Notes: a model not told the origin generated them from the letters alone. Counted from the first letter of the stretch, positions 57,065-61,802 are shown. The stretch is DNA of 64,000 bases from an uncultured Clostridium sp. (GCA_945877035.1 CAMCQH010000004.1:3212-67211), one strand, 5' to 3'. Numbers and translations are program-made.

Positions 57065-57091
<27 letters not shown>

Positions 57092-57182
57092 ATTTGCTTG
57101 ACAAATGTTTTTGTATGTCCAGCGACAGTATTTATATTAGCATTTTTAAAAACATTTGTCAATAGAAATTTTCATATTTTTT
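57065..57182. repeat. Direct repeat, left (attL-like): tRNA-Ser(UGA) nt 1-27 plus 91 bp upstream
   Basis: gccataaaccaactcgaccacctctccatttgcttgacaaatg...ttcatatttttt is identical to 61685-61802 except at 57133 (t versus a). Confidence 0.9.
57134..57162 (-). promoter_or_regulatory. sigma-A promoter of tRNA-Ser(UGA), lying inside the left direct repeat
   Basis: Minus strand reads TTGACA (57157-57162), 17 nt, TAATAT (57134-57139), about 40 nt upstream of the tRNA 5' end. Duplicated at 61754-61782. Confidence 0.65.
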
Positions 57183-57210
57183 TTATTTTTGGTCACCATT
57201 TAGTCACCAC

Positions 57211-58362
57211 TTAATTTATTTTGATTAATGTATCAAAGACATCAGCAACTTCTCTATCTACTTCCTCATATAAATGAGAGTATAAATCCATTGTTATTCC
57301 TATATTACTATGTCCTAATCTTTCAGATATAACCTTTGGTTGTATTCCTAATTTTACTAATAATGACGCGTGAGAATGTCTTAAATCGTGAAACCTTATT
57401 ACAGGTAGTCCATTTTTATTTAGCAATTCGTTAAATTTTGCACTAAATCTTTTAGGATAAAATAATTTACCGTTTGGATATGTACAAACCATATCAAAAT
57501 TCTGATATTCTTCACCTAATAACAATTTGTTTTTCATTTGCTCTGCTTTATGCTTTTTTAATATTTTTACAAGAGTATCTGGAATAGCAATATTTCTAAT
57601 ACTTTTATTTGTTTTAGGTGGTAATATTTTTAATCCTTGCTTTGTACAAGATAATTCTTGTACTACTCTTATATACTTTTTATCAAAATTTACATTTTGC
57701 CAACTTAATCCTAAAACTTCTCCTCTTCTCATACCAGTATATATTGCAATTATAATTGGGATATATATGTCAGAATTTTTGGCTTTTTCTATTAATAAAT
57801 TAGTTTGCTCATCATTTAAAAACTTTGCTTCATATTTCTTTGGTTTTGGAGGTTCAACACAGTCTGCAACATTTCTTACAACTAGTTGCCACTTAACCGC
57901 TTGCGTTAATGCTCCATGTATAATTCTATGCAAGGTTCTAACAGTTTGTTTGGATAATCCTCCTTTACCATTTATTTTACCATTTTCTAATTTTTCAGAA
58001 TAAAAACTTTGTAATTGCAACGGTTTTAATTTATCCAGCTGAATATTTCCTAAACTAGATTTTATATGTTTATTAATATATTGTTCATATCCTTCAATTG
58101 TATTTATACTCAAATTATTGTAACAATATTCTTTTAACCAGTAATCTAAATATTCTCCAAACGTCATTTTCTTTGTATCTACTAATAATCCTGTATCTAA
58201 TTCCCTTAATTTTTCTGTTAAAAATATCTCTGCATCTTTTCTATTTCCATATACAGTATAAGATTTTTGTTTTCGTTTTCCATTAATTTCTTTTGGTAAT
58301 TCAATTCTAACTTTCCAACTCTTTTTTTCTTTTGAAACCAATGTTATATTTCCTCTATTCAT
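57211..58362 (-). CDS. int: tyrosine-type site-specific recombinase (phage integrase family)
   Basis: SAM-like N-domain plus a catalytic domain with RRGE (R), HDLRHSHASLL (H-x-x-R) and LGHSNIGITMDLYSH (H...Y). ATG 58362 follows GAGAGGGGG. Confidence 0.9.
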   Translation of the reverse strand: MNRGNITLVSKEKKSWKVRIELPKEINGKRKQKSYTVYGNRKDAEIFLTEKLRELDTGLLVDTKKMTFGEYLDYWLKEYCYNNLSINTIEGYEQYINKHIKSSLGNIQLDKLKPLQLQSFYSEKLENGKINGKGGLSKQTVRTLHRIIHGALTQAVKWQLVVRNVADCVEPPKPKKYEAKFLNDEQTNLLIEKAKNSDIYIPIIIAIYTGMRRGEVLGLSWQNVNFDKKYIRVVQELSCTKQGLKILPPKTNKSIRNIAIPDTLVKILKKHKAEQMKNKLLLGEEYQNFDMVCTYPNGKLFYPKRFSAKFNELLNKNGLPVIRFHDLRHSHASLLVKLGIQPKVISERLGHSNIGITMDLYSHLYEEVDREVADVFDTLIKIN

Positions 58363-58393
58363 ATTCCCCCTCTCTGCTTTTAAGTTCAATATA

Positions 58394-58422
58394 ATTATAT
58401 CACGTTTTCGTTAGATATTCAA
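58394..58422 (-). promoter_or_regulatory. Promoter of int (TTGAAT-17-TATAAT) with a 14-nt operator-like sequence in the spacer
   Basis: -35 at 58417-58422 and -10 at 58394-58399. The spacer contains tcacgttttcgtta (58400-58413, plus-strand reading). Confidence 0.6.
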
Positions 58423-58593
58423 CCATTGTAACATAGCATTTTTTGAAATTCTAACGCACTTTCCAATTCTAATAATAGGAAAATCAACTTGTTTTATCAA
58501 ACTATAAGCTTTTGAACGACTTATTTTTAATATTTTTGCCATTTCTGAAACTGTAATCAAATCATTTCCATTTTCTAATTTATTCATCTTCAT
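58411..58593 (-). CDS. xis: excisionase-family / MerR-like HTH DNA-binding protein (60 aa)
   Basis: LITVSEMAKILKISRSKAYSLIKQVDFPIIRIGKCVRISKNAMLQWL matches the excisionase-type HTH pattern. Lies between rep and int. Confidence 0.7.
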   Translation of the reverse strand: MKMNKLENGNDLITVSEMAKILKISRSKAYSLIKQVDFPIIRIGKCVRISKNAMLQWLNI

Positions 58594-59680
58594 TGTTCCT
58601 CCCCTCTTTTAATAAATGTATTTTTTTATTTGTTTCTTTTTCAAAAGTAGTATTTTTAATAGCTAAATATTCTTTTGTATTCTTGTATAAATTTTCAAAA
58701 GCATTGTCTATACAAATAATATTTTTTCTTGCCGAGTAAGATGTTATATTTCCAACAATGTTAGGAATTAAAGTGTCTGCTTCCATATTAATTTGTTTTT
58801 CTCTTTTTATAATTCCTTTTGATAAAAAATTATCATAAGCTTGTTGTATTTCTTGCCATTTTTCATTAATTGGACATCTTTCTATTCTAGTATTTATTCT
58901 ATTTACTTTTACAAGCCATTCTTTCGTGCAATAATGCCAGATATCTTTTAAGCTATTTTCTAAATCTTCAATTGTTGTTATATTAAATTCTCTTAAAAAT
59001 TCACTTTTTAATTCAAATTCTAAATTCCATACATTTTCAATATCTAAATTATTTCTTAACCATATGTCAGTAAACCAAGATTTTCTTTTTGTTTCTTTTA
59101 TTTCTAATGTTTTATTGTATATTCTACAATAAATATTTTTTCCTTTACGACTTCCAAAAGTTAAGCAATTTATATTATTACCTGTGTATGTAACGCCTGT
59201 TTTCTTAAATGCGCCTTTATAACTATTTTGATAATCTTCTATAAAATCTATATCAGAAGTATGTGTACATATATCAACTCTTGAAATTTTATTTTTTTCA
59301 ATTTTTCCAAATGTTTCTTCTATCCATATTTTTATAATATTCCACGACTGAATAAATCCTTTTGACCATAAATATTCCGAACTTATTCTAATTTGAACAG
59401 GACTAAAACTTTCAATTCCTGATTTGAATTGAGAAATTTTTATTTCATAACCACTATTATGTAGAATGTAAGCATATCCTTTACTACCATTTGGAAGTAA
59501 CTCAAATGAAATATCATTTATAGAAATTAAATGTTTTAAATTTGAATTATTACTTAATAATAATTTTGCTTTTTCCTTTTCTTTTTTTAAAAATTCTAAA
59601 ATTTTTGCACTACTATTTTCATAATTTTCTATATCAATAAGTACATATAAAGTATCTATATTTGAAATTTTATTAATCAA
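58580..59680 (-). CDS. rolling-circle replication initiator, Rep_trans (pT181 RepC / phage RstA-like) family
   Basis: 366 aa. ISRVDICTHT and FGSRKGKNIYCRIYNKTLEIKE resemble the RiD(i/l)a.D and G.r.s....r.YdK..E motifs of the replication initiation factor family. TTG start lies 7 nt after GGAGGA. Confidence 0.65.
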   Translation of the reverse strand: MINKISNIDTLYVLIDIENYENSSAKILEFLKKEKEKAKLLLSNNSNLKHLISINDISFELLPNGSKGYAYILHNSGYEIKISQFKSGIESFSPVQIRISSEYLWSKGFIQSWNIIKIWIEETFGKIEKNKISRVDICTHTSDIDFIEDYQNSYKGAFKKTGVTYTGNNINCLTFGSRKGKNIYCRIYNKTLEIKETKRKSWFTDIWLRNNLDIENVWNLEFELKSEFLREFNITTIEDLENSLKDIWHYCTKEWLVKVNRINTRIERCPINEKWQEIQQAYDNFLSKGIIKREKQINMEADTLIPNIVGNITSYSARKNIICIDNAFENLYKNTKEYLAIKNTTFEKETNKKIHLLKEGRNNEDE

Positions 59681-59715
59681 TATAATTCCTCCTTAATATA
59701 ATTTTGGTGTTGTGG

Positions 59716-60842: not shown

Positions 60843-60885
60843 TTCGGACATACACGTTCCGAATGTTCGACATAGGAACTATTTT
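60843..60885. terminator. Bidirectional hairpin between convergent repressor and HTH genes
   Basis: cattcgga / tccgaatg inner stem plus ctagtcg / cgacatag outer stem. Confidence 0.6.
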
Positions 60886-60894
60886 ATTTTTATA

Positions 60895-61092
60895 TTATTT
60901 CATTTTGAATAAGTCATTTGGTTTACAGTCTAAAATTTTACAAAACTTTTCTATATTTTCATATTTAATTGATTTTGTCTTATTCATAACAATATTATTA
61001 AAATTTGTATAACTCATATCTAACTGATTAAAAAGCCAATATTTTGTTTTACCCTTTTTCTTTAAAATCTCTATTACGTTTAATTCTACCAT
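60895..61092 (-). CDS. XRE/Cro-type HTH transcriptional regulator (65 aa)
   Basis: KGKTKYWLFNQLDMSYTNFNNIVMNKTKSIKYENIEKFCKILDCKPNDLF is a typical short XRE-family protein. Confidence 0.75.
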   Translation of the reverse strand: MVELNVIEILKKKGKTKYWLFNQLDMSYTNFNNIVMNKTKSIKYENIEKFCKILDCKPNDLFKMK

Positions 61093-61142
61093 ACATATTA
61101 CCTCCTTTTTTCGTTATATATATTTTACAGGAGATATTTTAT

Positions 61143-61171
61143 TTGCATAACTCACGTTTTCGTTATATAAT
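61143..61171 (+). promoter_or_regulatory. Promoter (TTGCAT-17-TATAAT) with the same 14-nt operator-like sequence in the spacer
   Basis: -35 at 61143-61148 and -10 at 61166-61171. tcacgttttcgtta lies at 61152-61165. Confidence 0.6.
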
Positions 61172-61201
61172 ATAAATATCATATAGTAAAAGGAGGATAA
61201 T

Positions 61202-61477
61202 ATGAACAATATTGAAAAAGATTTAGCGCCATTTATTGAAGAAAGACTGCAAATTTCTTTTAAAGATTTAAAAAAAGCAAAAGAATATGAAAATTTAATA
61301 AAAATTTATAATAATTTAGATATAAAAATGTATAAATTATTAAGTAACAACATAGAAATCTATGAAAAAATAAAAAGTACATTATATTCAATGCAGTCTC
61401 TTGAATTACATAGAACTTATTTATTGGGCTTTCTAGATGGTATTAGATTAGATGAACATTTAAGAAAAAAGAACTAG
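61202..61477 (+). CDS. hypothetical protein (91 aa) of the integrated element
   Basis: ATG follows AAGGAGGA and a hairpin terminator follows (61471-61497). No family recognised. Confidence 0.55.
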   Translation: MNNIEKDLAPFIEERLQISFKDLKKAKEYENLIKIYNNLDIKMYKLLSNNIEIYEKIKSTLYSMQSLELHRTYLLGFLDGIRLDEHLRKKN

Positions 61478-61684
61478 GATTTTCCTAGTTTTTTTGTTAA
61501 TAAAATAAAAACTAGAAAATTATATTTCTAGTTTTTTAAGTCACCATTTAGTCACTAAATGATAAAATACTATATATTATTCAATACTATATAAAATACA
61601 TTATAAACTTAAAAGCATTTATTTTTCAATATTTTAAAATATTTGTTATCATTAAAAAATATTAGGTGGATTGCTTTTATAAAA

Positions 61685-61802
61685 GCCATAAACCAACTCG
61701 ACCACCTCTCCATTTGCTTGACAAATGTTTTTGTATGTCCAGCGACAGTATTAATATTAGCATTTTTAAAAACATTTGTCAATAGAAATTTTCATATTTT
61801 TT
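61685..61802. repeat. Direct repeat, right (attR-like): truncated 5' 27 nt of tRNA-Ser(UGA) plus promoter copy
   Basis: See 57065-57182. No tRNA body follows this copy. Confidence 0.9.

Follow-up and report, generated by a model that had tools for sequence, protein, structure and literature searches.

A small integrative element on the 5′ side of a gut Clostridium tRNA-Ser(UGA) gene that carries a promoter for its target

tRNA genes are the commonest landing sites of genomic islands, and nearly all of these islands replace the 3′ part of the gene. The usual explanation of this bias is that replacement of the 5′ part would need a promoter borne by the element. How, then, can an element occupy the 5′ side of a tRNA gene, and what becomes of the promoter? 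The question is raised by a 64,000-nucleotide stretch of DNA from an uncultured Clostridium sp. (GCA_945877035.1 CAMCQH010000004.1:3212-67211; this whole stretch is the window), in which a small element lies against the 5′ side of a tRNA-Ser(UGA) gene. We find it likely that this is an integrated 4.6-kb integrative rolling-circle replicon, similar to integrative mobilisable elements (IMEs), without transfer or packaging genes of its own.

An annotation of this locus made earlier from the sequence alone (the original prediction) had stated that tRNA-targeting elements almost always use the 3′ half of the gene. Indeed, in Islander, 159 islands have a 5′ tDNA fragment and 3760 a 3′ fragment (total 3919), and the only crossover classes are anticodon and T-region (PMC4383910). 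In a survey of Klebsiella pneumoniae, islands at arg2 were found integrated upstream, at a 'D-loop' site (bioRxiv 10.1101/2020.11.02.365908). Use of the 5′ side of a tRNA gene as a landing site is rare but already recorded.

The repeats at tRNA-Ser(UGA)

A repeat search of the window returned a direct repeat of 124 nt with 98% identity (57065-57188 and 61685-61808), and X-drop extension gave 118 nt with one mismatch (57065-57182 and 61685-61802). ARAGORN places tRNA-Ser(UGA) at 57000-57091 on the minus strand, so that each 118-nt copy consists of tRNA nt 1-27 and 91 nt of upstream sequence, comprising the promoter and a leader of ~50 nt. The promoter, TTGACA-17-TAATAT, is present on the minus strand of both copies (57162-57134 and 61782-61754). 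All of this bears out the original prediction, which was also right to count tRNA nt 1-27 to the repeat. The prediction, however, let the identity end exactly at the start of the anticodon stem, and this part does not hold: identity between the two copies stops after GGTTTATGGC, at nt 27, where the D-stem ends, and A28 still intervenes before the first base of the anticodon stem (nt 29).

The two copies have different fates. Copy A (57065-57182, minus strand), the identity block of attR, holds the element-borne promoter at 57162-57134, the leader and tRNA nt 1-27, and so belongs to a reconstituted gene, in which nt 28-92 are chromosomal and nt 1 to ~27, together with the promoter, stem from the element. 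Copy B (61685-61802, minus strand), the identity block of attL, holds the displaced promoter at 61782-61754 and an orphan tRNA fragment of nt 1-27. A full tRNA gene and a terminal fragment of it in the same orientation thus form direct repeats that bracket an integrase gene, which is the hallmark of a tRNA-targeting element. The repeat is not a chance one: at least nine related elements are built in the same way. The single mismatch (57133/61753) was considered as a mark of the element-derived copy and rejected as not diagnostic, because both variants occur in chromosomal and in element copies of relatives.

A second tRNA gene, tRNA-Ser(GCU) (56835-56924, minus strand; ARAGORN), lies 75 nt downstream of tRNA-Ser(UGA). 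We found no promoter-like site between the two tRNA genes; judging from their sequence, they are therefore probably co-transcribed.

The gene next to copy A encodes a tyrosine integrase (57211-58389, minus strand) with Phage_integrase, SAM_3 and Arm-DNA-bind_4 domains, identified by Pfam, PHROG and tree placement (PF00589, 5.9e-24; PF14659, 6.4e-17; phrog_1, 4.7e-83). It is preceded by the gene for an excisionase-type helix-turn-helix (HTH) protein of the HTH_17 family (58411-58593, minus strand; Pfam, PHROG), whose start overlaps the end of rep. Together with the Rep protein, an S24-like repressor, a Cro-like HTH protein and one further gene, they make up the content that had been predicted between the repeats, with which Pfam agrees for the integrase, the excisionase-type protein, the repressor and the Cro-like protein, and all six open reading frames (ORFs) are intact. 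The repeat search and the related elements also revealed tandem arm-type integrase sites, GTGAC-N6-GTGAC, at 57192-57207 (P′ arm, minus strand), and the same 16-mer occurs at 61540-61555 (P arm, minus strand). The two sites stand ~125-145 nt from the point where the identity block ends, one on each side, a spacing that would be expected for a lambda-like attP, and analogous tandem arm repeats flank every related element.

Comparison with related genomes that lack the insertion, proposed as a check by the original prediction, yielded precise empty sites. In G016 and G010, from related species, an EpsG-like gene, a single promoter block and the tRNA genes are contiguous. For a related element, the left flank of an occupied contig (L092) is 99.2% identical to that of an empty one (G001), and the flank alignments overlap by exactly one block. 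The empty sites, the recurring elements and the arm-type sites together uphold the central proposal, that an integrative element has entered the tRNA gene at its 5′ side and restores the 5′ part and the promoter of its target.

The crossover site and the integrase family

To which part of the repeat does the crossover belong? We compared nine elements at tRNA-Ser(UGA): G000 (that of the window), G005, G253, G535, and those of contigs L085, L087, L090-92 and L068/L086. In all nine, identity between the att copies ends at nt 27, after the same motif. Upstream, the identity extends over ~100-120 nt where the promoters of element and host are alike (G000, G005, G253 and L090-L092, the last with Rep homologue P0013), whereas perfect identity covers only ~28-33 nt where they differ (L085, L087, G535 and L068). 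In these short-identity elements the copy adjacent to int has a promoter and a leader of its own. Since the identity is confined to ~28-33 nt while the promoters differ, the crossover must take place inside the 5′ part of the tRNA gene; as read from the aligned att copies, it is shown to fall within nt 1-27. Since the copy adjacent to int has its own promoter, it is the promoter of the element that is left in front of the intact tRNA gene. A crossover in the true anticodon loop of tRNA-Ser was considered and rejected, because attP has no identity there.

Within nt 1-27, the identity ends and the half-sites suggest as attB core TTGGT-TTATGGC-ACCAG (nt 16-32; 57060-57076, minus strand). The 7-bp overlap would most likely be TTATGGC (nt 21-27, 57071-57065), flanked by TTGGT (nt 16-20) and ACCAG (nt 28-32). 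This proposal draws on a sister element on the 5′ side of tRNA-Leu(UAG), found in G255 and in contigs L069-L074 (Rep homologue P0002), whose Rep and Int are 85% and 60% identical to those of the window element. There, identity runs from -4 to +40 and ends at the 3′ border of the anticodon loop, and the element has its own, non-identical promoter. The anticodon-arm core of tRNA-Leu(UAG), CTGGT-CTTAGGA-ACCAG, shares its half-sites with tRNA-Ser nt 16-32 at 9/10 positions, and the 7-nt spacer in the tRNA-Ser core ends exactly at the identity end (nt 27); TTATGGC is therefore proposed as the overlap. By this analogy, the tRNA-Ser core may be an inverted repeat that mimics the tRNA-Leu(UAG) anticodon arm, CTGGT-N7-ACCAG.

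The crossover might instead lie in the D-loop proper, with the D-stem as a symmetric core, or elsewhere within nt 1-27. The whole D-arm is within the identity in all elements, and a D-loop sublocation with upstream integration is what has been described for the Klebsiella arg2 islands (bioRxiv 10.1101/2020.11.02.365908). The D-stem DNA (GTCG...TGGC), however, is a poor inverted repeat, and the D-loop, at 10 nt, is too long for an overlap of 6-8 bp. In the 3′-side relatives and in the tRNA-Leu(UAG) sister, moreover, the edge of the 7-nt overlap coincides with the end of the identity, and by analogy the overlap would abut nt 27; the agreement of TTGGT-N7-ACCAG with the core of the sister element points the same way. 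A crossover in the D-loop or elsewhere within nt 1-27 thus seems to us rather unlikely, and we favour TTATGGC.

The integrases place this site in a wider family. Other members of the family lie at the 3′ side of tRNA-Leu(UAA), tRNA-Phe(GAA) or tRNA-Leu(UAG), with identity from loop nt 31-33 to the 3′ end of the gene. In the integrase tree, the nine 5′-side integrases form one clade (support 96/94) nested among the 3′-side, anticodon-loop integrases. The Rep tree is incongruent with the integrase tree, and the modules have therefore been exchanged between elements. Every member has its identity block between the int-adjacent P′ arm and the crossover, which is ~115-145 nt away. On these alignments, the att geometry is constant as seen from the integrase, and what varies is solely the direction of the tRNA gene. 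In one 3′-type relative (contig L095, ~3460-3911), the integrase and P′ arm are followed by another gene of the element and not by a part of a tRNA gene, a junction that may be attP-like or a rearranged copy.

Homologues of Rep occur in 5/150 genomes of the genus and in 13/401 genomes of the family, spread over 9 genera; the element family is present in ~3% of the species of one family of small-genome gut Clostridia. The window element was found in pig-gut metagenome runs, and mouse-gut runs contain an element copy that is ~98% identical and lacks the right flank of the window. The protein database holds 246 Rep homologues (E <= 0.001), of which the best 120 include none with a precomputed Pfam family. 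Distant Rep homologues, 30-37% identical, belong to larger elements adjoining tRNA-Gly(tcc) in L065 (G326), L083 (G536) and L084 (G161); in G326, the 3′ end of this tRNA gene marks the start of direct repeats of ~420 nt that are spaced 7.1 kb apart.

Rep, the repressor and the nature of the element

Rep (366 aa; 58580-59680, minus strand) would be a rolling-circle initiator or relaxase of the Rep_trans fold, with Tyr188 as the catalytic residue predicted from motif and fold. An AlphaFold (AF2) model built from 45 homologues has a pLDDT of 92.6, and a Foldseek search of the PDB matched it to RepSTK1 (4CIJ) and RepDE (4CWC, 4CWE) with E-values of 6e-13 to 1e-10, probability 1.0 and TM (target) of 0.52-0.64; the next matches are TATA-binding-protein-like folds, with E > 1e-3. 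Foldseek and the model agree on the double five-strand sheet of the Rep_trans fold. R186, Y188, K190, E193, D136, E221 and E223 are invariant in the 45 homologues, and D9 is nearly so. The corresponding set in RepD is R189, Y191, K193, E196, D46, D142 and E214 (PMC4797284), and the motif R186-x-Y188-x-K190-x-x-E193 reproduces R189-x-Y191-x-K193-x-x-E196 of RepD, when matched by spacing and not by residue-level structural alignment. D136, E221/E223 and D9 are candidates for the three metal ligands; D9, near the N-terminus, is placed as in RepSTK1. The N-terminal HTH that precedes the Rep_trans domain in MOBT relaxases is absent from the model, in which a beta-strand begins at residue 4. Relatives at 24-30% identity are annotated as replication initiators of Bacillus, Clostridioides and Mesotoga plasmids and of single-stranded DNA (ssDNA) phages. 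No sequence-level match to PDB chains was found for Rep, and an NCBIfam search with Rep and the 91-aa protein described below gave nothing useful. The predicted Rep_trans likeness is nevertheless supported by Foldseek, the active-site motif, the weak matches to PF02486 in 17 of the 45 homologues (best 1.3e-5) and a CT'AA hairpin, and the protein is, on the model and the motif, a divergent Rep_trans initiator.

The hairpin, GGGCTAC-TAATAGTATGG-GTAGCCC (59716-59740, plus strand), is located upstream of rep and is a candidate nick site (double-strand origin or origin of transfer), with a putative nick at 59723/59724. It has a 7-bp GC-rich stem and an 11-nt loop, with CT'AA straddling the junction of stem and loop on the 5′ side, where C59722 is the final stem base, and it is kept almost base for base in 10 elements. 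The nic sites of Rep_trans and MOBT proteins are likewise 7-bp GC-rich inverted repeats with CT'AA at the top of the hairpin (PMC9371924). Next to it is a long imperfect palindrome of ~190 nt (59750-59950, no strand assigned; z = -5.4 for ssDNA folding), a candidate single-strand origin or Rep binding region.

The rep-xis-int operon faces a repressor gene across predicted back-to-back promoters (59974-60053; sequence match). A perfect TTGACA-17-TATAAT (60025-60053, plus strand) would serve the repressor gene, and TTTACA-17-TATAAT (60002-59974, minus strand) rep-xis-int. The repressor (60093-60818, plus strand; Pfam) combines HTH_3 with an S24-like (Peptidase_S24) domain, from which the original prediction had taken the element to be probably SOS-inducible. 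The sequence does not support this expectation. The domain keeps the Ser (DDSM), which is replaced in two family members, G253 and G507. Where LexA has its catalytic Lys, the family has an invariant Arg when aligned with MAFFT, or an Ile in the HMMER alignment to 3K2Z. The repressor contains no AG or CG dipeptide at which cleavage of the Ala-Gly or Cys-Gly type could occur. Self-cleavage of the SOS type is therefore unlikely, and induction from outside more plausible.

Of the two remaining genes, one encodes a Cro-like HTH_26 protein (60895-61092, minus strand; Pfam) and the other a protein of 91 aa (61202-61477, plus strand) with weak matches to DUF6809 and phrog_28204 in profile searches and no Pfam family. 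An exact 14-mer, TCACGTTTTCGTTA, occurs at 58400-58413 and 61152-61165, in the spacers of two promoter-like sites, one upstream of int, the other upstream of the 91-aa gene; it is perhaps an operator, with the HTH_26 protein as a possible binder. The promoter of copy B reads into the P arm and on toward the 91-aa gene, and the original prediction had it fire antisense into that gene. However, two tandem terminator-like hairpins (61537-61501 and 61490-61462, minus strand), which would stop transcripts from the displaced promoter, precede the antisense of the gene, so that antisense interference is not the expected outcome.

These features suggest how the element would work. A lambda-type integrase with an arm-binding domain would recombine attP and tRNA-Ser(UGA), at a site in the 5′ part of the gene. 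Between the P′ arm and the crossover, attP would carry a tRNA promoter in full, with its leader and tRNA nt 1-27, in the order int, P′ arm, promoter, tRNA nt 1-27 and then TTTTATAAAAGC; because of this, the copy borne by the element would drive tRNA-Ser(UGA) after integration, and probably the co-transcribed tRNA-Ser(GCU) as well. The former promoter and a 27-nt stub of the tRNA gene would be displaced 4.6 kb upstream, to read into the P arm until stopped by the two terminators. The S24-like repressor, probably not self-cleaving, would control the divergent rep-xis-int operon. After excision, Rep would nick the conserved CT'AA hairpin, and this nick could serve rolling-circle replication, mobilisation, or both.

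Could the element instead be a defective, fixed remnant, a domesticated promoter cassette with decaying genes, of which the repeats are only the historical trace? Remnants of older elements do persist at the tRNA-Ser site, G150 has a decayed copy whose int is interrupted by a stop codon, and the source samples, seen as k=31 contigs, showed no circular or empty-site molecules and a depth of the element close to that of its flanks. Such an origin is nevertheless highly improbable. Besides the six intact ORFs, the arm sites are identical at both ends of the element, the nic hairpin and the catalytic residues of Rep are conserved, conspecific contigs are polymorphic for a related element, the ~98% identical copy in mouse-gut samples does not share the right flank, and the Int and Rep trees are incongruent. 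A phage satellite, with an ssDNA or a tailed helper whose antirepressor induces it and with packaging as rolling-circle concatemers or ssDNA, is less remote, and still we hold it to be unlikely. An S24-like repressor without the catalytic Lys would need an outside inducer, and a repressor facing a rep-xis-int operon is the layout of phage-inducible chromosomal islands (PICIs) and of RS1-type satellites. Distant relatives of Rep occur in ssDNA phages (phiCjT23 and Cellulophaga phages), and the element has no coupling protein. On the other hand, none of the six genes belongs to a packaging, capsid-remodelling or terminase family at a meaningful E-value, the sole hint being phrog_370 (E 0.03) for the 91-aa protein, so that the gene set that marks PICIs and other satellites is missing; no helper was identified; and proteins of the Rep_trans type that have CT'AA nic sites function just as well in mobilisation (PMC9371924, PMC5704250).

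Several points weigh against an integrative, IME-like replicon with the crossover proposed here. No excision product, either an attP circle or an attB from the same sample, was demonstrated in the data, which are k=31 contigs. A cyclic contig of 4650 nt in runs X1 and X2 is such as a repeat longer than k produces, and the depth of the element is ~1.1x that of its flanks. We rejected such circular contigs as proof of excision: 4650 nt is the 4620-nt period plus k-1, at the depth of the flanks, and the repeat also bounds contigs L074, L068 and L096. The element has no evident means of transfer. Of the confirmation of Rep_trans by hidden Markov models that the original prediction had sought, only the weak matches of the homologues came through; the window protein itself has no Pfam match at E < 10 and falls short of the gathering score of PF02486. 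At the crossover, the attP side past the overlap has no ACCAG-like half-site, and the cleavage positions within tRNA nt 1-27 are deduced from the sequences. Finally, the long identity in G000, G005, G253 and the L090-L092 element requires an extra process, for which gene conversion, recapture or scars of earlier elements are candidates.

An IME-like replicon has partial parallels among known systems. The pSAM2-type elements of actinomycetes share with it the rep-xis-int operon order, a rolling-circle initiator and a tRNA target; pSAM2 itself uses the tRNA gene's 3′ end, has a different Rep family and brings its own FtsK-like transfer gene. The closest likeness in position is to the 5′-fragment islands of Islander and the Klebsiella arg2 islands, in which the element also lies upstream of the tRNA gene, with a displaced 5′ acceptor strand and D-arm and a tyrosine integrase. 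In contrast to these islands, the core proposed for the window element is not a tRNA arm, but a chance inverted repeat over the D-loop, the 3′ strand of the D-stem and the 5′ strand of the anticodon stem; promoter carriage is shown by elements whose promoter is unlike that of the host; and the 5′-side habit belongs to a single clade inside an anticodon-loop, 3′-side integrase group. What is distinctive here is, thus, the demonstrated promoter carriage, the proposed non-arm core, the single-clade origin of the 5′-side habit and the promoter scars in the host described below.

In gene content, the element resembles the Rep_trans/MobT IMEs of streptococci (PMC5357655, PMC5704250), which are small, encode a tyrosine integrase, Xis and a Rep_trans-fold protein, have a GC-rich hairpin with the CT'AA nic motif and lack both mating-pore genes and a coupling protein; Rep_trans-encoding IMEs without a coupling protein are described there as common in streptococci (PMC5704250). 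Unlike MobT, the Rep of the window has no N-terminal HTH, and its catalytic domain is N-terminal, as in the plasmid proteins RepSTK1 and RepD. Those streptococcal IMEs in a table of PMC5704250 that a text search brought up lie at the 3′ ends of their target genes, whereas the window element lies on the 5′ side of a tRNA gene with a promoter, and its host is one of the uncultured gut Clostridia. The pT181/pSTK1 plasmids (RepC/RepD/RepSTK1; PMC4797284) share the fold, the R-x-Y-x-K-x-x-E motif, the acidic ligands and a nick hairpin beside rep, but the replicon of the window is integrative and repressor-controlled, and its Rep is only 24-30% identical to plasmid Reps.

The family shows the promoter-carriage solution in compact form. 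With sister elements on the 3′ side that have the same att geometry, the switch of side can be studied within one integrase clade. The small, self-contained integrase/attP modules and the minimal integrative rolling-circle replicon could, in addition, become tools for genetically intractable, uncultured gut Clostridia.

Promoter remnants and the tRNA-Ser neighbourhood

If the elements bring promoters, their erosion might leave these promoters behind. In L087, the 198 nt directly upstream of the displaced block match, at ~88% identity, the final ~115 nt of an int gene of the G000 type together with its GGTGAC arms and its promoter, whereas the resident element uses GGTTGACA arms. In G535, the same kind of remnant (int 3′ end, arm sites and promoter) lies upstream of the displaced block. 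Both scars are clear. They show that earlier elements left their promoter before the tRNA gene, and suggest that, for essential tRNAs, hosts can inherit promoters that elements brought in. A broader proposal is that the elements are promoter donors for an essential tRNA operon, that eroded elements left working 'native' promoters in several lineages, and that nt 16-32 are a fourth tRNA crossover location, a chance inverted repeat mimicking the tRNA-Leu(UAG) anticodon arm. We put this forward tentatively, as an idea somewhat more doubtful than probable; if true, it would explain how the integrase clade, having changed once from the 3′ to the 5′ side, came to jump between the two tRNAs. The closest relative (G016) lacks the 45 nt that, in the window, separate the stop codon of the EpsG-like gene from copy B, and 61809-61852 (minus strand) may be a decayed P′ arm remnant of an older element. 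This match is statistically weak: as an arm-site scar it was not significant by local alignment (120/2000 shuffles scored as high), and it is kept only as a possibility.

On the other side of the tRNA genes, a locus resembling a type IV secretion system (T4SS; 41471-53981) encodes TrbC/VirB2 pilins, PrgI, a VirB4-like ATPase and a cell-wall hydrolase (Pfam), and the original prediction had named it an obvious candidate helper. Other hosts have the order parA, parB, DUF4446, (EpsG-like), [element], tRNA-Ser, tRNA-Ser, pilins, VirB4, and in G014, which was among the genomes compared upstream of tRNA-Ser, pilin-like ORFs come after the tRNAs. The T4SS-like locus is thus conserved beside tRNA-Ser in other hosts, both in element-bearing contigs and in G014, and its adjacency therefore comes from the target site; on gene order, it cannot be called a specific helper.

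Between the tRNA genes and the T4SS-like locus, the window contains genes for a HipA_C-like kinase (316 aa) with an overlapping upstream ORF of 71 aa (55591-56744) and for an AAA_14/DUF4143 ATPase (54086-55378); both the kinase and the ATPase are absent at that position in other hosts. The EpsG-like gene on the far side of the element (61853-63319) encodes a 488-aa EpsG/PMT_2-like membrane protein; among conspecific contigs, it is present in L090 and absent in L092 and G001, with flanks that are 99-99.9% identical. Two contigs of a related species, L090 and L091, are 99.75% identical over 8.8 kb and then only 70-77% identical in the VirB2-like pilin cluster beside tRNA-Ser, so that the pilin genes (~9000-10900) are hypervariable between near-identical strains.

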